Positions 174 through 7,689 of a stretch of 7,689 nt of DNA are shown in pieces (positions within the stretch are counted from its first letter, which is position 1; the number at the start of each line of letters is the position of its first letter). Both the position numbers and the translations under genes were made by a program. The notes under the pieces were generated by a model, which was not told the DNA's origin, made no database searches, and saw only the letters and a program-made list of their open reading frames with translations. Origin of the DNA: a virus; IMG/VR virus record IMGVR_UViG_2671180228_000002; one strand, 5' to 3'.

Positions 174-344
174 ATGGATCACCTTGAGTACGCAGAGCAC
201 TGCGAGCAGCACGCACAGTTCGCGCGCGATCTGTCCGTGTATTTCCGGTCGATCAACGAAACCGGCATGGCAAGGAGCTGTGATCTCGATGCGGAGCATT
301 GGGACTACATGGCATCCATACACCGCAACCGGGGTGAATCGTGA
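174..344 (+). CDS. Small hypothetical protein (56 aa), His/Cys-rich and acidic; first gene after the switch promoter
   Basis: The ATG at 174 is preceded by a G-rich SD-like tract. The track start at 147 is a TTG. By my count about 71 percent of third codon positions are G/C. The stop overlaps the next start (GTGA at 341..344). The sequence is MDHLEYAEHCEQH...C...H...H, with no recognisable HTH. Confidence 0.5.
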   Translation: MDHLEYAEHCEQHAQFARDLSVYFRSINETGMARSCDLDAEHWDYMASIHRNRGES

Positions 345-619
345 TCCATCCGTTCATTGCCTTCGTGCTGCTGGCGGCCATCGTGGCCGTATCCATTGGC
401 AGCGCCAAACTCGTTTCGTGGTGCCTCGACCGGCGTGGGGCGTCCGCCCGTCGCAGCGCACATGAAGCGGCCTTCGTAGCCCAGGCACGCGCCGAACTGG
501 CCGCAACCGGCTGGACCCCGAATCACGAAACGCTCTATCAGGCCGAGATTGCCGCCACCAAGCGCGGCGATCTGCTGGCCGCCGCTCGATTCGCCGAAGA
601 GCAGGAGCGCGCCGCATGA
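341..619 (+). CDS. Hypothetical single-pass membrane protein (92 aa)
   Basis: The GTG start overlaps the upstream stop. There is an N-terminal hydrophobic helix (IHPFIAFVLLAAIVAVSIGSA) followed by an Ala/Glu/Arg-rich helical tail. The stop overlaps the next ATG (ATGA at 616..619). Confidence 0.5.
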   Translation: MIHPFIAFVLLAAIVAVSIGSAKLVSWCLDRRGASARRSAHEAAFVAQARAELAATGWTPNHETLYQAEIAATKRGDLLAAARFAEEQERAA

Positions 620-792
620 GCAGGTACCCCTCATTCGCCGAGCTGGCAGAGTTCGATATGGGCCTCGCGGCAGTCGTTGTGTTCGTGTCGCTCGTCGTGG
701 GCGGAGCCATTGTCTCCATCGTGATTGAGCAGGCATGGCTGGCGCTTCGTCGCCTGTGGAAGCTTCGCAAGGATCGCTCCAATGGCCGGTGA
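616..792 (+). CDS. Small hydrophobic protein (58 aa), absent from the supplied ORF track
   Basis: My own translation is MSRYPSFAELAEFDMGLAAVVVFVSLVVGGAIVSIVIEQAWLALRRLWKLRKDRSNGR*. AGGAG at 603..607 lies 8 nt upstream of the ATG. It is ATGA-coupled to the upstream ORF and has one TM helix followed by a basic tail. Confidence 0.45.
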   Translation: MSRYPSFAELAEFDMGLAAVVVFVSLVVGGAIVSIVIEQAWLALRRLWKLRKDRSNGR

Positions 793-1888
793 GCGCGCGG
801 TGCTGGCCGAGTCGGGACTCCCCTCGTCTAACAGGGGAGTCAGTGAATTCAGGAACCCCGAGGGAACCCTGACGGTCGGCATCGACTGGTTCTCCGCTTC
901 GATCGATCTGCGCGCAGCGCTGGACGAGGTCGCGTTCCGTGATGGCGACAGCTTCGAAGAGGTCCGCCAGTGGATCGAGTTCTCCCCGGAAAACGCACGT
1001 ATTGCGGCCCTGCAGGTGTTCTGCTGGTTCTTCGCAGGGCTGGGCCTCGAACTGGATGAAGCAGCAGGCGGCGGTCGCTTCTACACGTGGCGAATCAAGA
1101 TCATCGACGCGGCCAAGAAGTTCGTCGGCATGATCGAACTGGGCGGCGAAGAGTGCCGCCGCGCCGATGGGACATATACCGCCCGCATCGAGCTAACCGG
1201 TGATGGATGCAAGGCGATAAGCGCAGCGCGCTGCGGCCATGCGCAGCGGTGGCTGGAGCTTCGAGCGAAGCTCGAAAGCTGCGCCGGAAGGATCACGCGT
1301 GTTGACGTGTGCGCCGATGACCTGGTGGGGGAATACCCATTGCGTCTGGCGCAGAAGTGGTACGCCGCTGGCGAGTTCGATAACCGTGGTCAGCGCCCGA
1401 AGGCGCAGCTGGTGGACGACTACGACAGCGGCGACGGCAAGACGTTCTATGTGGGCGGCAAGAAGTCGGAGAAGCAGCTTCGCGTCTACGAGAAGGGCAG
1501 GGAACAGGGCGATAAGAGTTCACCGTGGGTGCGCTATGAGGCGCAGTTCCGCAACTCCAACCGCAAGGAACTGCCCCTCGACATTCTGCGTGATCCGGCC
1601 TCCTACCTACTCGGGGCCTATCCGGTGCTGTCCTTTCTGCGCTGTGTTGCCACGCGCATCGAAATCACGAAAGCCGCCGTTGAGGCGACGTGGAAGAGCG
1701 TACGCCGCCACATCCGACGCCAGTACGGCGCAGCCCTCAATTTCATCGCCAAGAGTTGCCCGGACGATCAGGCATTGCGGGCGGTAATCGAATCCTGCAC
1801 TTCGCCATCGCTGCCGAAGTGGGTCACAGGCGAAACAGCAGCGCATTGGCCCGAAATCGCGGCCGTACAGCAAACCTCAAAAGGGTAA
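782..1888 (+). CDS. Rolling-circle replication initiator, Rep_trans (RstA / pT181 RepC-like) family, 368 aa
   Basis: Motifs typical of Rep_trans are present: GIDWFSASIDL near the N-terminus, RVDVCADD, and FYVGGKKSEKQLRVYEKG...PWVRYEAQFR with the candidate catalytic Tyr in RVYEK. The ATG at 782 has AAGGA 8 nt upstream. The track start at 725 is a TTG inside the upstream small ORF. Confidence 0.85.
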   Translation: MAGERAVLAESGLPSSNRGVSEFRNPEGTLTVGIDWFSASIDLRAALDEVAFRDGDSFEEVRQWIEFSPENARIAALQVFCWFFAGLGLELDEAAGGGRFYTWRIKIIDAAKKFVGMIELGGEECRRADGTYTARIELTGDGCKAISAARCGHAQRWLELRAKLESCAGRITRVDVCADDLVGEYPLRLAQKWYAAGEFDNRGQRPKAQLVDDYDSGDGKTFYVGGKKSEKQLRVYEKGREQGDKSSPWVRYEAQFRNSNRKELPLDILRDPASYLLGAYPVLSFLRCVATRIEITKAAVEATWKSVRRHIRRQYGAALNFIAKSCPDDQALRAVIESCTSPSLPKWVTGETAAHWPEIAAVQQTSKG

Positions 1889-1894
1889 CAGCGC

Positions 1895-2197
1895 ATGAGC
1901 ATCAAGATCACCGTCCTCAAGAACGAAATTGACGAACGCGTCGGCAGCTTCAAGAACGAAAAGGGCGAAGACGTCAAGTTCACCACTCGCAAGCAGAAGG
2001 CCAAGTTGGAAACCGCAGGTTTCGCCTACCCATTCGACGTGCGCCTGGAGGACGGTCAGAGCGGCTACCCCGAAGGTGAGTACGAGCTCGACGTCGAGTC
2101 CATGTTGCAGGTCAACAAGGGCGTTGCATCGCTAAGCAAGTTCACTGTGCTGCGGATGTTGCCGAAGGCTGCGCCGCGCGTAGCTGCCCAGGGCTAA
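1895..2197 (+). CDS. Probable ssDNA-binding protein (gV-like), 100 aa
   Basis: The call rests on size, position directly after rep, and a beta-rich charged sequence with no TM segment (MSIKITVLKNEIDERVGSFKNEKGEDVKF...). It is positional and compositional only. Confidence 0.6.
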   Translation: MSIKITVLKNEIDERVGSFKNEKGEDVKFTTRKQKAKLETAGFAYPFDVRLEDGQSGYPEGEYELDVESMLQVNKGVASLSKFTVLRMLPKAAPRVAAQG

Positions 2198-2199
2198 CG

Positions 2200-2421
2200 A
2201 TGTCCGATCCGGCACCCCTCTACGTGGTCGGCTGTGCTGCTGAAAACGTGCAGCAGGACGGCACGTGTTCGGTGCCTGTCTGGATGCCATACCACCAGCC
2301 AGTGTTGCCACCCCTGACATTGGCTGATGGAACCCTTGTCGCGTTCTCCATCGTTGGAGTTTGGGCAATCGGGTTGAAAGCGCGTCTCGTATTCCGCGCG
2401 GCGCGCATAGGGGTCTACTGA
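2200..2421 (+). CDS. Small membrane protein (73 aa), possible minor coat/assembly protein
   Basis: There is a C-terminal hydrophobic segment (TLVAFSIVGVWAIGL) followed by a basic tail. The stop overlaps the coat-gene ATG (TGATG at 2419..2423). Confidence 0.5.
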   Translation: MSDPAPLYVVGCAAENVQQDGTCSVPVWMPYHQPVLPPLTLADGTLVAFSIVGVWAIGLKARLVFRAARIGVY

Positions 2422-2678
2422 TGACGAGGAAAACCACAATGGAGTTCATGAACGCTGCTCGCCGTTTCGGCGCTTCCACCGTCGCCAAGATTGGCGCCGG
2501 TACCACCGCCCTGGTTGCTTCGGGTGCCGCACTGGCCTCGGGTTCGAGTTCGCCGGGTGCCGCCATCGCTGGCGAAATGGCCGGTGGCAAGGCCGATATC
2601 GGAGTGGTCATCGGTGCGTGCGCCGTGCTGATTGGCCTGATTCTGGTCTGGGCCTACACCCGCAAGGCTGCGAAGTAA
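2421..2678 (+). CDS. Major coat protein precursor (pVIII-like), 85 aa; predicted 46-aa mature form
   Basis: The long leader ends in ...VASGAALA, with a predicted cleavage before SGSSSP. The mature sequence SGSSSPGAAIAGEMAGGKADIGVVIGACAVLIGLILVWAYTRKAAK has an acidic N-part, a hydrophobic core and a basic C-terminus, like the 46-aa Pf1 coat as I recall it. AGGGG lies 7 nt upstream, and an intrinsic terminator follows the gene. Confidence 0.8.
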   Translation: MTRKTTMEFMNAARRFGASTVAKIGAGTTALVASGAALASGSSSPGAAIAGEMAGGKADIGVVIGACAVLIGLILVWAYTRKAAK

Positions 2679-2697
2679 CGGGGCCTGTGCTGAAACC

Positions 2698-2729
2698 GGG
2701 GGCGCACGGTAACGTTCGCCCCCTTTTTT
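2698..2729 (+). terminator. Rho-independent terminator after the major coat gene
   Basis: The stem is GGGGGCG (2698..2704) with CGCCCCC (2717..2723). It can be extended by ACG/CGT around a GTAA loop and is followed by TTTTTT (2724..2729). Confidence 0.8.
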
Positions 2730-2743
2730 ATGGGGGAATTGTC

Positions 2744-2806
2744 ATGGGCTACTTCATCATTGTTGGCATCTGTGGTGCTTGCTGGCTTGCGTTTGAGGGC
2801 ATGTGA
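2744..2806 (+). CDS. Tiny hydrophobic ORF (20 aa), possible pVII/pIX-like minor coat protein
   Basis: The sequence is MGYFIIVGICGACWLAFEGM*. GGGGGA at 2732..2737 lies 6 nt upstream of the ATG. The stop overlaps the start of the next gene (TGATG). It is shorter than the 32-33 aa of Ff pVII/pIX. Confidence 0.4.
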   Translation: MGYFIIVGICGACWLAFEGM

Positions 2807-4119
2807 TGAGGCGCATCTTGTTCTTGCTGCTCGCGCTTTTGCCATCGTCGGCATTCGCGATTGACCAAGGCGAGGCGACAGAGCAAGCGATCAGCAATAT
2901 TCGGCAGTCGTGCAGCGGGGCTGTTGCCGGTGCATCGATTGACTCGGGCACGATAGGCCTGATTGTGGGCCCAGGTAGCGTAAACGCATTCGGCAACTGT
3001 CTCTTTGAAAATGGTGGATTTCAGGGGCGCCATAGCTCTACCGTCGCATTCGATCAGTCCTGCGAAGCTCGGGGTACTAAGACCACGCCATTCTTTCCAC
3101 CATCTGGCTCCGTGTCTTGTAGTCGTGGTTGTGAGGTCAAGTATGCAGACAACGGCGACGACACCACGTCCTATTGGAGTACCGGTCAAAGCTGCAACGA
3201 GAAGCCGGATTGCACTAAGCAGGGCGGCAACATGATCTGGAACGGTGCGCTGAAGGTTTGCCAGCCCGTTGAGCCCGAGTGTCCCAAGGGTAAGGTAAAG
3301 GTCGGTAACGCCTGTACAGATGAAAAGCCTTGCCCGGACGGCATGGCGCTTGTGGCTGGGTCTTGCAAGAAGAAAGATGAAGAGTGCCCGGCTGGCATGA
3401 TTCGCAGCCCCTCGGGCCAGTGCATTCCCGGTGATGGTCAGTGCGCCAAGGGCGAGGTTCGCGGGCCAGATGGCACCTGCAAGAGGGACAAGGACAACGA
3501 CGGTCAGCCGGATACCGATGACCCCGAGAGCTTCTCTGGCGGCGACACCTGCGAGTCTCCGCCGTCGTGCAGCGGCTCGCCGATCATGTGTGGGCAGGCG
3601 CGGATTCAATGGCGAATTGAATGCAATACCCGCCGTAACAACAACATCAGTGGTGGTCAGTGTACGCAGGCCGGTATGCCGACATGCACTGGTGAGAAAT
3701 GCAATGCCATGGAGTACACCCAGCTTCTGATGCAGTGGCGATCAGCGTGTGCCGTGGAGAAGCTTGCTGCAAAGCAAGACACGCCTGGACAAGGTGGCAA
3801 CCAAGGTGATGCAAATGGCAACGGCGTAGCCGATGTGCTCGAGGGCAGGGGAGACGTTACGCCCATCGGCGATGGCGCGGCGGACATCGCTAGTGCCAAG
3901 AAGTGGGGAATTCCTCTTTCAACCGACAATCTCGACACAAGCAACATGTTCGGTGGTGGTGGGTCATGCCCGCAACCGCCGTCGATCACGATCATGGGCA
4001 AGACGGTGAGCGCTGGTGACGTTCCATACTTCTGCCGAATTGCAGCGATTCTGCGCGGGTTGATCCTCATCTTTGGTGCATACACGGCAATTCGAATTCT
4101 GATGGGAGCGGTCTTCTAA
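2806..4119 (+). CDS. Adsorption / minor coat protein (pIII-like; C-terminal half resembles TspB-type inovirus attachment proteins), 437 aa
   Basis: There is a signal peptide (MRRILFLLLALLPSSAFA | IDQ), 26 Cys, Gly-rich linkers and a C-terminal membrane anchor (FCRIAAILRGLILIFGAYTAIRILMGAVF). The gene sits between the coat gene and the pVI/pI genes. The ATG at 2806 is preferred over the GTG at 2803. Confidence 0.75.
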   Translation: MRRILFLLLALLPSSAFAIDQGEATEQAISNIRQSCSGAVAGASIDSGTIGLIVGPGSVNAFGNCLFENGGFQGRHSSTVAFDQSCEARGTKTTPFFPPSGSVSCSRGCEVKYADNGDDTTSYWSTGQSCNEKPDCTKQGGNMIWNGALKVCQPVEPECPKGKVKVGNACTDEKPCPDGMALVAGSCKKKDEECPAGMIRSPSGQCIPGDGQCAKGEVRGPDGTCKRDKDNDGQPDTDDPESFSGGDTCESPPSCSGSPIMCGQARIQWRIECNTRRNNNISGGQCTQAGMPTCTGEKCNAMEYTQLLMQWRSACAVEKLAAKQDTPGQGGNQGDANGNGVADVLEGRGDVTPIGDGAADIASAKKWGIPLSTDNLDTSNMFGGGGSCPQPPSITIMGKTVSAGDVPYFCRIAAILRGLILIFGAYTAIRILMGAVF

Positions 4120-4439
4120 TGGGCATGGTTTCTGACTGGATCACCGATGGCATTTCGTCTTTGCTTGGCAAGACCAAGGAAGCGGCAGCAGGAATGCTGG
4201 GCAAACTTCTGGCGACTTTCGGGCTGACTACCGTCACGTTCAATGCGCTGCTGCCCAAGCTGAAAGAATTCGTGATGCAGTTCATCGGCGGTATTGATGG
4301 GCAGGCTTACGAGATGCTTTCGTACCTTGGTGTCGGCACATGCTTCTCCATGATCTTTTCCGCCCTTACGGTGCGTATGGCGTGGAAAATCTTCATCGTT
4401 CCTAAGTCAGTCGCCGATGGGCTGGGGTCGGGCTCATGA
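4119..4439 (+). CDS. pVI-like minor coat protein (DUF2523-like), 106 aa
   Basis: The protein is hydrophobic and lies immediately upstream of, and ATGA-coupled to, the Zot gene. It has a TAATG overlap with the pIII-like gene. Size and position are typical of inovirus gVI. Confidence 0.6.
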   Translation: MGMVSDWITDGISSLLGKTKEAAAGMLGKLLATFGLTTVTFNALLPKLKEFVMQFIGGIDGQAYEMLSYLGVGTCFSMIFSALTVRMAWKIFIVPKSVADGLGSGS

Positions 4440-5626
4440 TCTACTGGTATACGGGCCAGCCTGGACACGGGAAGACGCTGCACGGCATCGAGCGGCTACT
4501 TGAATTCAAGGATCAAGGGCGCATCGTCTACGCCTGCAACATTCGCGAGTTCGACTACGCCAAAACTGGTGTGCTGGAAATGACGCCGGAACAGTTCAGG
4601 GACTGGCCGAATTTCTTGCCTGATGGCGCAGTTGCTCTGGTTGATGAGGCCTATGAACACGGCATGCTGCCTAAGCGTCCGACAGGCTCTAAGGTCCCGC
4701 CTCACGTTGAACAGCTGGCGAAGCACCGCCACAAGGGTCTGGATTTCATCTTCATCAGCCAGTCGCCGGATAAGCAGTGCGATCAGTTCGTGCATGACCT
4801 GATTGAACGCCACGTGCATGTGCGTCGCCGTTTCGGCACGAAGTTTGTCGATCTTCGCGAGTTCGACAAGTTCGAGGCCCGTGCAGAGAAAGCAACACCG
4901 CTGGTCACGAAGCGGCGCACACTGCCCAAGCGTCCTATGGGCATGTACAAGTCCACTGAGCTGGACACTACCGAGCGGCGCATCCCCTGGTACGTCATCG
5001 CGTTGCCGGTTCTGGCCGTTGCCGCCGTCCTTATGATGTATTTCGCGTTCGGGCGCATGGATAAGCGAATGAACGGCGGAGACAGCCCCGCAGTCGGCGG
5101 TACTGCTCAAGCGGCTACACCGCACGACGGAGCACCTGCGACGGCGGGCGGTGCTGCCGCGCCGAGCCCGGCACAGCCACTCAAGGACTACGTCGACAAG
5201 TTCCTCCCGCGCATCCCATCACAACCGTGGAGCGCACCTGTCTATGACGGCGCACTCAGCCTGCCGGCCGAGCCGCCGCGCATCTTCTGCATGTCGTCGC
5301 TCGGCGGGGAGAACGGCCTCGGTGAACAGGACAAGCCCAGCTGCACGTGTGTGACAGAGCAGGGGACGCGGTACGAATTGGCAGATGAACCCACCTGTCG
5401 CATGGTTGCGCGAAGTGGGCAATACGAGCCCTATTTGCCGAAGCGTGAGGATCGCCTCGTCGATGGGCAGACGCAGATAAATCGCGGCATGCAGGAAATC
5501 AATCAACGCCAGGTTGAAGGCACGGCAATTGCTCGCAGTCAGCGAGCTATGGGGAGCTTTCCAGAGTCTCCGCCCATCAGTACCACTAGCTACATGACCA
5601 CACCTCGCGGGGAGAATCGGCTATGA
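4436..5626 (+). CDS. zot: Zot-family assembly ATPase (pI-like), 396 aa
   Basis: The N-terminus MIYWYTGQPGHGKT carries a Walker A motif (residues 7-14), and ALVDEA (about 67-72) is Walker B-like. A central TM helix (IPWYVIALPVLAVAAVLMMYFAF) is followed by a Pro/Ala-rich linker and a Cys-containing periplasmic domain (CMSS...SCTCVTEQGTRY...C). Confidence 0.92.
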   Translation: MIYWYTGQPGHGKTLHGIERLLEFKDQGRIVYACNIREFDYAKTGVLEMTPEQFRDWPNFLPDGAVALVDEAYEHGMLPKRPTGSKVPPHVEQLAKHRHKGLDFIFISQSPDKQCDQFVHDLIERHVHVRRRFGTKFVDLREFDKFEARAEKATPLVTKRRTLPKRPMGMYKSTELDTTERRIPWYVIALPVLAVAAVLMMYFAFGRMDKRMNGGDSPAVGGTAQAATPHDGAPATAGGAAAPSPAQPLKDYVDKFLPRIPSQPWSAPVYDGALSLPAEPPRIFCMSSLGGENGLGEQDKPSCTCVTEQGTRYELADEPTCRMVARSGQYEPYLPKREDRLVDGQTQINRGMQEINQRQVEGTAIARSQRAMGSFPESPPISTTSYMTTPRGENRL

Positions 5627-6249
5627 CCAGCGGCGGTCGTGAGTTGCTCAAGTGGCTGGCGTTGGCACTGATGACCGGCGATCACGTCGTGACCGTTTTC
5701 CACTTGGGCCATGTGTCAGTTGTGTCCGAGCTTGGCCGTGTAGCGTTTCCGGTCTTCGCGTTGGTGATGGCGTTCAATCTTGCTCAGCCGGGCGCAGACG
5801 CAGCGAAGTCGGCCCGGCGTCTGGCGGCTTGGGGTATTGCGGCAACGCCCGTGGCTGTCCTGGCATTCGGCCAGTTGCTGCCGCTGAATGTCCTACTGAC
5901 GTTCGCTGTGGCCGCTGTTTGTGTATGGGCTATTGAACGCCGGTATTGGCTGCTGGTCGTGCTTCTCGCGGTCATCGCCCCGGCGTGGCTGGACTACGCG
6001 TGGCCGGGCGTGTGGCTTGTTCTCGCTGGATGGCGTTGGTACAGGGGGCAGGGTGGTCAACCGTGGCTGGTGTGGGGCTGCATGGGCCTGTTGTGCGCCT
6101 ATAACGGCAATGCGTGGGCTTTGCTCGCCATTCCGGCGCTGCGGCTCGGCCACTTCAACGTTGCTTTGCCGCGTTCCGGCAAGGTCTTCTATGGCTACTA
6201 CGTAGGCCACCTTGCCGCGATGGTGGCGCTGGCGGGACTAGGGACATGA
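5623..6249 (+). CDS. traX: TraX-family (F-pilin N-acetylase-like) polytopic membrane protein, 208 aa
   Basis: The motifs ELLKWLALALMTGDH, LGRVAFPVFALVMAFNL and LNVLLTFAV match my recollection of the TraX family consensus (LK.iA...M.iDH, GR.aFP.Fa). There are about 6 hydrophobic helices. The gene has an ATGA overlap with zot, and GGGGAG lies 8 nt upstream. Confidence 0.72.
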   Translation: MTSGGRELLKWLALALMTGDHVVTVFHLGHVSVVSELGRVAFPVFALVMAFNLAQPGADAAKSARRLAAWGIAATPVAVLAFGQLLPLNVLLTFAVAAVCVWAIERRYWLLVVLLAVIAPAWLDYAWPGVWLVLAGWRWYRGQGGQPWLVWGCMGLLCAYNGNAWALLAIPALRLGHFNVALPRSGKVFYGYYVGHLAAMVALAGLGT

Positions 6250-6687
6250 GCCGGACTGCACCCAGCCGTTCTCCACGCGCCTCAAGCGCGTATCGCCGAC
6301 GCATCGTTCATTCGGGCCTAGTGGCGGCGGTCGGTGCACGCGCTCATACTCTGCGGCCCGTTGCGCTTCTTCTCGGCGCTTCTCTGCCGCAATTTTCGCA
6401 AAGCCCATTGGGTCAGGGTCGTTGGCGATCTTGTTGAGATCATCGATCGCTTTGTTTAGCTGGACCTCTTGTTGCTTCTGGACGGCATAGCCCAGCGAGC
6501 CCAGGACTGTGCAGGTTGCGAGTCCGCAGGCGCTCATTCCAAGAAACACACCCAGGGCAACCTTCCATACCAAGCCGGTGCCGCTACCTGAAGTTTGGCT
6601 TCGAACAGGTCGATTGCGATTGCCGCGGAACTGCACGTCCTGCAGATCGGGCACGCTGAAGGTTGGTTCATGTCGTTCGCGGTCCAT
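6238..6687 (-). CDS. Hypothetical single-pass membrane protein (149 aa) with a charged helical and Cys-pair C-terminal domain
   Basis: The ATG at 6687 has GGGGAG 4 nt upstream. The track start at 6699 is a TTG. The TM segment is LVWKVALGVFLGMSACGLATCTVLGSLGYAV. The 3' end overlaps the traX-like 3' end convergently by 12 bp. Codon usage is visibly less GC3-biased than in neighbouring genes. Confidence 0.6.
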   Translation of the reverse strand: MDRERHEPTFSVPDLQDVQFRGNRNRPVRSQTSGSGTGLVWKVALGVFLGMSACGLATCTVLGSLGYAVQKQQEVQLNKAIDDLNKIANDPDPMGFAKIAAEKRREEAQRAAEYERVHRPPPLGPNERCVGDTRLRRVENGWVQSGSCP

Positions 6688-6727
6688 ACGGCTCCCCAAG
6701 GCGTCCTGCGCGCATTGTAGCCGGGGT

Positions 6728-6746
6728 GTAGGGGCGGCGCCCCTAC
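6728..6746. repeat. Perfect 9-bp-arm palindrome GTAGGGGCG-G-CGCCCCTAC
   Basis: It lies in the 56-bp gap between the two - strand genes and shares the GTAGG/CCTAC half-sites seen in the promoter operators. No T-tract follows on either strand. Confidence 0.7.
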
Positions 6747-6755
6747 GAAAGCGCC

Positions 6756-7136
6756 TTACACGCGCTGGCGAGGTCTCGGCCCCGGTACCGGCAGGACACC
6801 TGCAGGAGGCTCGGCGTCAGGGCCAGCCATCGCCACCGCCGACCGCTGTTTGCGCCGGCTCACCACGTCCCGCAGATTGACGACAGTGGCAGGACGATCC
6901 CATGCCACTGCAGGAAGATTGCCACCACGCTTGGAACTGTCGATCGACGGCGCAGAACGCGCAGCTTCCATCATCCGGCGCCATTCCTGCGCTTGGCAGG
7001 CGGTGAGCGACAGCCAGGCCAGATCCTCGGGAAGTAGCTCGCGGCCCTCAGGGGTGATCAAGCGATCACCGAGGAAAGAAAAACCGGCCCAAGGGCCGGT
7101 CAAGTCGATACGGTGGTGCGGGTCGAACACGATCAT
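6756..7136 (-). CDS. Hypothetical phage protein (126 aa), possibly DUF3653-like
   Basis: The N-terminal motif DLTGPWAGFSFLGDRLITPEGRELLPEDLAWL resembles the W.GW...G..L.tPeG pattern I associate with DUF3653 phage proteins. The gene is ATGA-coupled to the repressor gene (7133..7136). The C-terminal half is Pro/Arg-rich and low in complexity. Confidence 0.55.
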   Translation of the reverse strand: MIVFDPHHRIDLTGPWAGFSFLGDRLITPEGRELLPEDLAWLSLTACQAQEWRRMMEAARSAPSIDSSKRGGNLPAVAWDRPATVVNLRDVVSRRKQRSAVAMAGPDAEPPAGVLPVPGPRPRQRV

Positions 7137-7606
7137 GCCGCGATCTCATCCTTGGCCGGGGACTGAGGGCGCAGGCAAGAGCCGAGCCAGAGGCCCAGCC
7201 ATTGCCACGCGGAGCCAACAAAAGCCCAGATTCGACGGATACGCCATTTCGCATAATGTATATCGTGCAAGGCATTGCCAGTCTGCGGCATAGCCTGCAC
7301 GTCGTGGGGTAGGGTGAAGCCAACGGCCAGGCACAAGGCCATCGCCGTTGCAGCCAGACGTTTCCAGAACGTGCGCTCAGGCGAAGTAAGCGCCGCACGC
7401 TTCATGATCTCAATCGCCTGTTTTTCCGGCTCCGGATGCCCTTGGATACGGAGCGCATCTGCCACTACCCACACCTGCGGCACACGCCTACCCATGCGGT
7501 AGTGGCCGATTGCGCCGTCCGTGATACCCAGCAGCGGCGCCAGCTTTGAATAGCTCTCGACCTTGGCCGCCACGCGGGTTCGCTCAAAGAAGTCATTCCA
7601 GTCCAT
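7133..7606 (-). CDS. HTH transcriptional repressor (phage immunity-type, DUF3693-like) with hydrophobic C-terminal segments, 157 aa
   Basis: An HTH-like segment YSKLAPLLGITDGAIGHYRMGRRVP lies near the N-terminus. The gene is divergent from the main promoter, with GAGG 5 nt upstream of the ATG. Hydrophobic stretches are LAATAMALCLAVGFTL and IWAFVGSAWQWLGLWLGSCL. Confidence 0.72.
   Translation of the reverse strand: MDWNDFFERTRVAAKVESYSKLAPLLGITDGAIGHYRMGRRVPQVWVVADALRIQGHPEPEKQAIEIMKRAALTSPERTFWKRLAATAMALCLAVGFTLPHDVQAMPQTGNALHDIHYAKWRIRRIWAFVGSAWQWLGLWLGSCLRPQSPAKDEIAA
7246..7273. other. dif-like XerCD recombination site (candidate attP)
   Basis: The site reads ATTTCGCATAA-TGTATA-TCGTGCAAGGC. 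The first 17 bp match the XerC arm plus central region of dif (E. coli dif is GGTGCGCATAATGTATATTATGTTAAAT). Its reverse complement contains TATACATTATGCGAA, the 15-bp core that I recall being reported as shared by Xanthomonas dif and the attP of Cf1c, phiLf and XacF1. The XerD arm is degenerate, with about 4 of 11 matches. Confidence 0.75.
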
Positions 7607-7689
7607 AGCCGCCTCGGGTTCGTGTACGGGTGTAGCCTACAGGTGTTGACACCTACGGATGTAGGCGCGTATAAAGCCCCCATCGCCTA
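7595..7689. repeat. Right copy of the exact 95-bp terminal direct repeat
   Basis: Identical to 1..95. It contains the repressor start codon (7604..7606, minus) and a second copy of the promoter/operator region, with -35 at 7646..7651 and -10 at 7670..7675. Confidence 0.97.

Follow-up and report, generated by a model that had tools for sequence, protein, structure and literature searches.

How does a filamentous phage that encodes no integrase enter the chromosome of its host, and what becomes of a regulatory gene that carries the attachment site within its own reading frame? Both questions are raised by the DNA analysed here (hereafter the window: the whole stretch of 7,689 nucleotides, IMG/VR record IMGVR_UViG_2671180228_000002), in which an earlier note had pointed to a 28-bp mimic of the chromosomal dif site inside a predicted repressor gene. 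We conclude, with a probability of about 0.85, that this element is the phage attachment site (attP) for the host recombinases XerC and XerD, of the TLCphi/Cf1c type, that it lies in the linker of the regulator, and that integration splits the operon to which the regulator belongs. That the site is the attP, and that its recombination with dif in a shared 17 bp separates the regulator gene from the DUF3653 gene downstream, is near certain. Catalysis by XerC and XerD is likely, by homology with XacF1, phiLf and TLCphi, and a change of regulator isoform with silencing of the DUF3653 gene after the split is plausible.

The attachment site and its junctions in prophages

The window belongs to a Stenotrophomonas filamentous phage with PSH1, SMA7 and SMA9 as relatives. 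The 28-mer ATTTCGCATAATGTATATCGTGCAAGGC lies at positions 7246-7273 and was compared with the dif site of Stenotrophomonas (ATTTCGCATAA TGTATA TTATGTT...., as read at five loci, L001, L037, L061, L069 and L126, among the matches listed); it agrees at 11 of 11 positions of the XerC arm, 6 of 6 of the central region and 3-4 of 11 of the XerD arm. The earlier note had already called the XerC arm and the central region dif-like and the XerD arm degenerate, and the alignment to candidate host dif sites that it had proposed found the former two identical in Stenotrophomonas. The window holds the XerC half and the central region of dif only; neither the full E. coli-type nor the full Xanthomonas-type dif 28-mer has a match in it at three or fewer mismatches, and no second dif-like site was found on either strand at up to 2-3 mismatches. 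Even with two mismatches allowed, the window has a single copy of the 15-nt core TTCGCATAATGTATA, which appeared in 0 of 200 shuffles, and the number of exact 17-nt matches expected from base composition is 8e-8. An attP of the CTXphi class, in which two inverted dif-like sites form the attP(+) hairpin of single-stranded DNA, was ruled out since a single site is present. In the minus-strand open reading frame (ORF) 7606..7133, codon 112 corresponds to 7273-7271 and codon 121 to 7246-7244; the attP spans residues ALHDIHYAKW of the regulator, codons 112-121, just where it had been placed before, and its XerC arm is 110 bp from the start of the DUF3653 gene. Gene families were assigned by Pfam and PHROG scans of all sizeable ORFs of the window, and no integrase or recombinase was found among them, as had been claimed.

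The Stenotrophomonas dif loci came from a dif-core scan of one genome per species, which returned at least 120 loci across many proteobacteria and which provides examples, not frequencies. L126 is a 36-kb NCBI contig that encodes the DUF3653 protein of the window with every residue identical; the exact 157-residue regulator of the window is not on record in public assemblies. The L126 prophage is 99.5% identical to window positions 342-7263, and the similarity ends at 7263, where the host XerD arm follows. At its left junction the host TTATGTTTCCA arm is succeeded by TGTATA, ATTTCGCATAA, the phage tail segment and the DUF3653 gene (as read, host ...GGAAACATAA, TATACA and TTATGCGAAAT, then the tail segment at 100% identity and the DUF3653 gene). 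The left end is a rebuilt canonical dif, followed by the tail segment and DUF3653. At the right junction, about 7.4 kb off, the N-terminal part of the regulator runs through the arm TCGTGCAAGGC and the core into a diverged phage-tail relic of about 65 bp and then into unrelated DNA, and the regulator fusion formed here is a 177-residue product. A prophage junction with the 5' part of the regulator beside dif flanks, which the earlier note had suggested looking for, is found in L126 exactly at the site.

The same topology is present in L001, a complete S. maltophilia chromosome, and in L002, where DUF3653 lies at one prophage end and DUF3693, the family of the regulator, at the other, with the core at both. 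The predicted transfer of the 126-residue ORF to the opposite prophage end is therefore seen in L126, L001 and L002. Junctions of the attP type also occur in L001, L002, L061 and L139, and in L126, L001, L002 and L139 the integrated copies sit at the chromosomal dif, between a canonical dif and a hybrid site. In the array of L139, the head of one element's regulator continues in frame, across the junction at 10346, into the tail of the next element, whose DUF3653 gene follows; the tandem array rebuilds a full-length regulator ORF and the DUF3653 operon between elements. Episomal, single-prophage and tandem states with different ORF structures, as the earlier note had anticipated, all exist in nature. 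In L139 and in several fusion proteins reading ...YIMRK..., the outermost base of the XerC arm differs between the partners and stays with its own flank, which fits an exchange inside the central region. The phage lysogenises at dif, and attachment site, integration class and host genus are fixed. With a dif-mimic attP, no integrase and copies at dif, the element belongs with the integrative mobile elements exploiting Xer (IMEX), its dependence on XerC and XerD being drawn from analogy.

In the mechanism that we propose, recombination with the chromosomal dif inside the shared 17 bp linearises the circle at attP. The promoter and regulator codons 1-120 go to one prophage end, where they are fused to whichever sequence flanks the chromosomal XerC arm, be it from the host, from a relic phage tail or from the tail of a prophage already in residence. 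At the opposite end, a rebuilt and fully canonical dif stands directly before the conserved tail segment, which is followed by the DUF3653 gene. The full operon returns on excision or when a second element integrates upstream. The earlier note had expected residues 1-120 to be kept and the remainder to be replaced by host flank; about 120 residues are indeed kept and a foreign tail is acquired, but the replacement is often a relic or resident phage tail.

Several features of these loci deserve a separate record. On the chromosomal side of the XerC arm, a diverged and truncated copy of the phage tail of about 55-70 bp precedes unrelated host DNA, and several homologous proteins read into a host flank with such a relic, which is probably a scar of earlier filamentous phages. 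In L069 (S. riyadhensis; 5083-6112), the dif site is bracketed by two oppositely oriented sets of DUF3653 genes, and the flank beside the XerC arm is a different one that recurs in L088, a pattern that suggests a second kind of dif-integrating element. L139 (5755-17553) is a metagenome scaffold with an array of at least three dif-linked elements, including one small element with a REP_ORF2-G2P replication gene and one whose regulator is of a different helix-turn-helix (HTH) type without the core. In L126 (9874-17302), the HTH head, the intergenic region and the first small ORF are a different allele from that of the window (7264-7594 plus 1-341); the two regulators are about 39% identical overall and far less so in the HTH part, and the difference looks like an immunity-module exchange with one breakpoint at attP.

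The regulator, the DUF3653 gene and their relatives

The regulator consists of a lambda-repressor-like HTH domain (residues 1-73), a hydrophobic helix (residues ~76-99), the variable linker that bears the attP (residues ~100-125) and a conserved Trp-rich C-terminal tail (residues 126-157). It matches PF12472 with 59.8 bits (cut-off 21) and belongs to a PHROG annotated as 'transcriptional regulator', and the Pfam DUF3693 profile ends at residue 118, that is, at attP. AlphaFold2 modelled a five-helix N-terminal domain with a predicted local distance difference test score (pLDDT) above 90 for residues 1-70 and placed further helices, with low confidence, at 76-96 and 115-144. XRE proteins, foremost the P2 C repressor and lambda cI, were the top Foldseek matches, at high probability but weak E-values (0.09-0.5). 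On the evidence of fold and family annotation, the protein is a putative repressor. Hydropathy is moderate, the Kyte-Doolittle value of the tail being only about 1.0 over 19 residues, and neither for the tail nor for the two low-confidence helices is a transmembrane segment claimed. A literature search for 'DUF3693' found no paper.

The relatives of the regulator display the site throughout the family. In the best 120 homologues, to which all homologue counts refer, a peptide encoded by the core stands at residue ~115 in 107, and it is read as YIMR in 52, as IHYAK in 40 and as YTLCE in 15. All three reading frames are thus in use, and it is the DNA site that is conserved, not the peptide. Natural fusions break at codon ~120 in L126, L001, L002 and many homologues. 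Contig size serves here only as a proxy for the episomal or integrated state. On short contigs, most homologues continue past the site into the Trp-rich tail FVGSAWQWLGLWLGSC...KDEIAA, regardless of the frame used at the site; on long contigs, most stop, enter unrelated sequence or read the phage tail out of frame. In-frame tails were on contigs below 9 kb in 14 of 18 cases and out-of-frame phage tails on contigs of at least 9 kb in 23 of 33 (Fisher p=0.0015). Among six phages, the substitutions in the tail fall 44, 50 and 125 times on codon positions 1, 2 and 3, the pairs compared not being independent; this third-position bias shows that the tail is translated and under purifying selection in the circular form, in its own frame. 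We consider that dif recombination shuffles regulator heads and tail/DUF3653 modules between phages; out-of-frame chimeras occur, and a 99.5%-identical prophage carries a different immunity head.

The same gene position is used in other phages. Among 16 phage genomes, those of the window and of 15 records, nine have the exact core within the regulator ORF (the window, PSH1, SMA9, XacF1, Cf1c, phiLf-UK, phiXv2, XaF13 and Xf109), and in 9 of the 16 the dif core stands between the HTH domain of the regulator and the DUF3653 gene. The distance from the core to the regulator stop is 72-113 nt in the eight genomes measured. A DUF3653 gene is present in every sequenced Xanthomonas or Stenotrophomonas filamentous phage of the phage collection, and the GenBank annotation of phiLf-UK, phiLf2, phiXv2, Cf2, XaF13 and Xf109 puts the attP within the HTH ORF, a short way before the DUF3653 gene. 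A tblastn search of the phage records with the regulator retrieved PSH1 and SMA9 only. The XerD-side arms of PSH1, XacF1 and the L001 and L002 prophages are mutually unrelated. In phiLf2 (L127, 5388-5415) and fSU1 (L133, ~902), the core runs the other way with respect to the regulator and DUF3653 genes and has a canonical-looking XerD arm (TTATGTCAGGA), and the annotated attP of Cf2 (L135, 885-905) has the central region and the XerD arm (TGTATATTATGTCAAAG) without the XerC arm; several attP designs therefore occupy one gene position. In some phages, the HTH regulator and DUF3653 are one ORF with the attP in the linker (PHROG 34897; ORF10 of phiLf2, L127, 4989-5822; Xf409, L138, 614-1384; P0030 and P0083), and these fused ORFs share the domain order of XafT of TLCphi.

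The identity of the downstream ORF as a DUF3653 gene had escaped the earlier note. Its protein matches PF12375 with 35.6 bits (cut-off 22.4), has WAGFSF, a form of the WAGFXF motif, at residues 16-21 of 126, and is 38% identical to ORF11 of XacF1; a sequence search against solved structures gave no match. Its start overlaps the regulator stop (ATGA, 7136-7133). The DUF3653 family includes both XafT, which serves TLCphi as Xer activation factor, and PSB15, the packaging-signal-binding protein of phiLf-UK. Midonet et al. reported that XafT (HTH plus DUF3653) activates XerD for integration and that DUF3653 genes cluster at dif, including those of all Xanthomonadales lysogenic phages (PMC6744903), and Yeh et al. 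that PSB15 binds the packaging signal and is needed for assembly (bioRxiv 10.1101/2024.03.19.585677). These two published functions bear on one gene beside attP and need reconciling; by analogy, both may hold for the window protein, and that it assists integration is plausible but contested. At 7082-7101 (minus strand), a terminator-like GC-rich hairpin with a T-run lies in the first DUF3653 codons (TGPWAGFSF); its sequence recurs in L001 and L002, which may be no more than a consequence of the protein motif being conserved.

The regulator and DUF3653 genes are presumably transcribed as an operon from the divergent intergenic control region, where the promoter is a predicted one. Inverted GTAGG/CCTAC repeats stand around TTGACA...TATAAA at 7630-7668 and again at 6727-6748, just past the DUF3653 stop, and are candidate operator or terminator elements. 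The coordinates of the features are collected in Table 1. The window is a closed 7594-bp circle in which positions 1-95 recur as 7595-7689, a 95-bp assembly overlap, and it represents either a replicative form or a tandem copy. Its plus strand encodes Rep_trans, a single-stranded DNA-binding protein, coat proteins, a DUF2523 protein, Zot and TraX, and its minus strand ORFs of 153, 126 (DUF3653) and 157 (DUF3693) residues. Two of these genes are outside the core inovirus gene set, namely the TraX-family gene (5623-6249, plus strand; Pfam E=3e-42) and the 153-residue ORF (6238-6699, minus strand), which has no informative family match.

Table 1. Features of the attP locus of the window and of related loci, with the evidence for each
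Feature	Position	Strand	Evidence
attP, dif mimic	7246..7273	.	XerC arm and central region identical to Stenotrophomonas dif; L126 junction exactly here
attP XerC arm ATTTCGCATAA	7246-7256	.	sequence
attP central region TGTATA	7257-7262	.	sequence
attP degenerate XerD-side arm TCGTGCAAGGC	7263-7273	.	sequence
Regulator gene, 157 aa	7133..7606	-	Pfam DUF3693 E=2e-16; PHROG 638 E=1e-20
Regulator codons 1-120, kept with promoter upon integration	7247..7606	-	geometry; natural fusions in L126, L001, L002 and homologues
Tail-coding segment, codons 121-157 RIRRIWAFVGSAWQWLGLWLGSCLRPQSPAKDEIAA	7133..7245	-	L126: beside rebuilt dif, 100% identical to window
DUF3653 gene, 126 aa	6756..7136	-	Pfam DUF3653 E=1e-8, above curated cut-off; PHROG 2188
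Divergent intergenic control region (start)	7607..7689, on into 96-146 of circle	.	TTGACA...TATAAA; GTAGG/CCTAC inverted repeats
Phage-tail relics at chromosomal XerC arm	L126 17301-17365; L001 10362-10425; L002 10360-10430		sequence comparison
Assembly overlap	7595..7689	.	95-nt direct repeat of 1-95, 100% identity, spacing 7594

Possible reasons for an attP inside the regulator gene

We tentatively suggest, at odds below even, that the position of the attP acts as a genetic switch. Integration would cut the DUF3653 gene, for an Xer activator, a packaging factor or both in one, from its sole promoter and remove the conserved Trp-rich tail of the regulator, so that a lone prophage would be locked in and make no virions. 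The operon would be whole again on excision or once a second element had integrated upstream. XafT has been detected from the replicative form of TLCphi and is undetectable after integration (PMC9226527); if the switch exists, it would be a structural answer to why factors of the XafT type vanish in this way, and a host-recombinase version of integration-dependent immunity. In any case, the layout offers a testable structural explanation for the loss of the Xer activator after integration.

Several points weigh against the main reading of the site as an XerCD-dependent attP beside an Xer activator gene. The dependence on XerCD of the window phage and its host is argued from analogy. A start-codon mutant of PSB15 in phiLf-UK still gave attL and attR products in the polymerase chain reaction (PCR) (bioRxiv 10.1101/2024.03.19.585677), so that the Xaf role may not hold in the clade of the window phage. 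A TLCphi test plasmid integrated with about 2 kb between attP and the xafT region (PMC6744903), and expression of xafT there is thus not obviously dependent on transcription across attP. We infer that the DUF3653 gene depends on the regulator promoter and lacks its own. Consensus sigma-70 scans of the regulator/DUF3653 region and the prophage junctions gave no usable signal, and they missed the regulator's own promoter too; the scan found no promoter-like site between attP and the DUF3653 start but is insensitive in a GC-rich genome. Given these uninformative scans, an internal or host-derived DUF3653 promoter may exist. Finally, five out-of-frame phage tails are on contigs of 5-9 kb, and should those represent viable circular phages, the conserved tail would be dispensable.

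The last observation also agrees with genome compaction, in which the attP would occupy a tolerant linker for want of space in a 7.6-kb genome, the protein forms would be equivalent and DUF3653 would be adequately expressed in both states. This is a serious contender, although we would not put it at even odds. Nowhere is the regulator less conserved, or modelled with less confidence, than in the linker, the tails acquired in prophages are arbitrary, and xafT of TLCphi worked about 2 kb from attP. Part of the conservation of the tail may moreover be a constraint on DNA, the ...KDEIAA end overlapping the start region of the next gene. Yet compaction does not account well for the third-position bias of the tail substitutions (44/50/125), nor for the way in which the tail frame is regained downstream of the site irrespective of the frame in which the site is translated, which indicates that the full-length protein is under selection. 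The order regulator, attP, DUF3653 is also kept in at least nine phages with regulators only ~23% identical, deletion of the 5' part of ORF12 in XacF1 delayed integration and destabilised the prophage (PMC5666396), and XafT could not be detected once TLCphi had integrated.

It is also conceivable, but unlikely, that integration switches the regulator between isoforms as in the mycobacteriophage BPs. The full-length protein would be inactive, held at the membrane or degraded through its -EIAA tail in an ssrA-like manner, and the tail-less prophage form would be a stable, active repressor. The attP does lie inside the regulator gene, integration does change the C-terminus, and the tail is hydrophobic, Trp-rich and conserved as protein; gp33 of BPs is a precedent (PMC4557955), and the N-terminal part of ORF12 stabilises the XacF1 prophage. 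The regulator of the window ends in -KDEIAA and relatives in -ELAA, -EIEA or -EARAWI. Endings of the -EIAA, -ELAA and -EIEA kind in full-length forms would suit such a switch, but many full-length homologues end in -EA or longer (such as -EARAWI) rather than -AA, and these terminal residues overlap the start region of the next gene, being constrained by the ATGA overlap and its ribosome-binding region. The long random tails of prophage isoforms could themselves be destabilising.

A different question is how strands are exchanged. Das (2014) distinguishes a CTXphi class, with a folded single-stranded DNA and two sites, a VGJphi class, without dif homology in the XerD-side part of the central region and with catalysis by XerC only, and a TLCphi class, with a canonical XerC arm and central region, a degenerate XerD arm and XerD acting first (PMC4246890). 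The same review places phiLf and Cf1c with TLCphi, not VGJphi (PMC4246890). The earlier note had assigned the site to a combined VGJphi/Cf1c class; the Cf1c-type pattern stands, whereas the VGJphi part does not, two classes having been merged. By its sequence, the window attP belongs to the TLCphi class and not to the VGJphi class, because its central region is identical to dif and its XerD arm is degenerate. Integration by the VGJphi route, in which XerC would carry out a single strand-pair exchange and leave the junction to be resolved by replication, with neither XerD catalysis nor an Xaf-type activator, seems improbable to us. Perfect homology on the XerC side would permit it, the DUF3653 mutant of phiLf-UK still integrated as judged by PCR, and according to a 2026 preprint an activator is likewise encoded beside attP in VGJ-type elements, so that adjacency by itself does not split the classes. 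However, the VGJphi attP lacks XerD-side central homology, which excludes XerD catalysis, while the window has 6 of 6 central positions with a degenerate XerD arm; Cf1c and phiLf are listed with TLCphi, and the adjacent gene is of the DUF3653 (XafT) family rather than XafV/ORF136.

The notion of a strictly episomal phage, its likeness to dif being accidental or the remnant of a site no longer active, would agree with the closed circle of the window itself but can virtually be dismissed, given 8e-8 matches expected by chance, the same type of junction in L001, L002, L061 and L139, and above all the near-identical L126 prophage, whose junction exactly at the site refutes it.

Comparison with known systems

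One of the closest known systems is XacF1. Its attP lies inside ORF12, a 'possible phage regulator' that is split in two on integration (Ahmad et al., 2017; PMC5666396), its integration at dif was shown experimentally, and XerC/XerD dependence was reported (PMC5666396). As in XacF1 and Cf1c, the 15-nt core of the window lies near the 3' end of an HTH regulator ORF (in XacF1, 6504-6518 within ORF12, 6427-6885), and as in XacF1 the next gene is a DUF3653 homologue (ORF11 in XacF1) that overlaps the regulator stop codon. The two systems are nevertheless distinct: the regulators are ~23% identical over the HTH (E=5e-5), the XacF1 site is read as YIMRS and leads into a shorter, unrelated tail, the XerC arms disagree at the outermost base (ACTTCGCATAA in XacF1), and the host genus is another.

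TLCphi, a satellite phage of V. cholerae, likewise has one double-stranded attP, in which the XerC arm and central region are canonical and the XerD arm is degenerate (PMC4246890), encodes a DUF3653 protein beside the XerC arm of its attP (PMC6744903) and integrates reversibly at dif (PMC4246890; PMC6744903). It differs in that XafT is an HTH fused to DUF3653, where the window has two coupled ORFs with the attP between them, and in that it is a satellite without morphogenesis genes; XerD-first catalysis and activation of XerD would apply to the window phage by analogy. VGJphi, also of V. cholerae, resembles the window phage in being filamentous, in having no integrase and a single double-stranded dif-like attP, and in integrating reversibly at dif. 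It is set apart by an attP without XerD-side central homology and by an activator, XafV/ORF136, that is not a DUF3653 protein.

The mycobacteriophage BPs integrates by its own tyrosine integrase, and its attB is not dif. The window phage, by contrast, has no integrase, host XerCD would act in its place, and integration displaces a second gene as well. In BPs too, the repressor gene harbours the attP, and the C-terminus of the repressor changes on integration (PMC4557955). A C-terminal ssrA-like degradation tag on the virally encoded form and a difference in activity were demonstrated for BPs, and in these respects the likeness of the window phage is one of analogy.

In phiLf-UK, the record annotates 'xerc/d recombination' inside ORF10, a Cf1cp8-like member of the DUF3693 family, and the gene for ORF112/PSB15 (DUF3653, ORF9) comes next and overlaps ORF10; the two DUF3653 proteins share the WAGFXF motif. 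PSB15 was reported to be necessary for assembly and unnecessary for integration. An attP within the regulator gene is an arrangement already known for this group of phages, and the window adds a further member to it.

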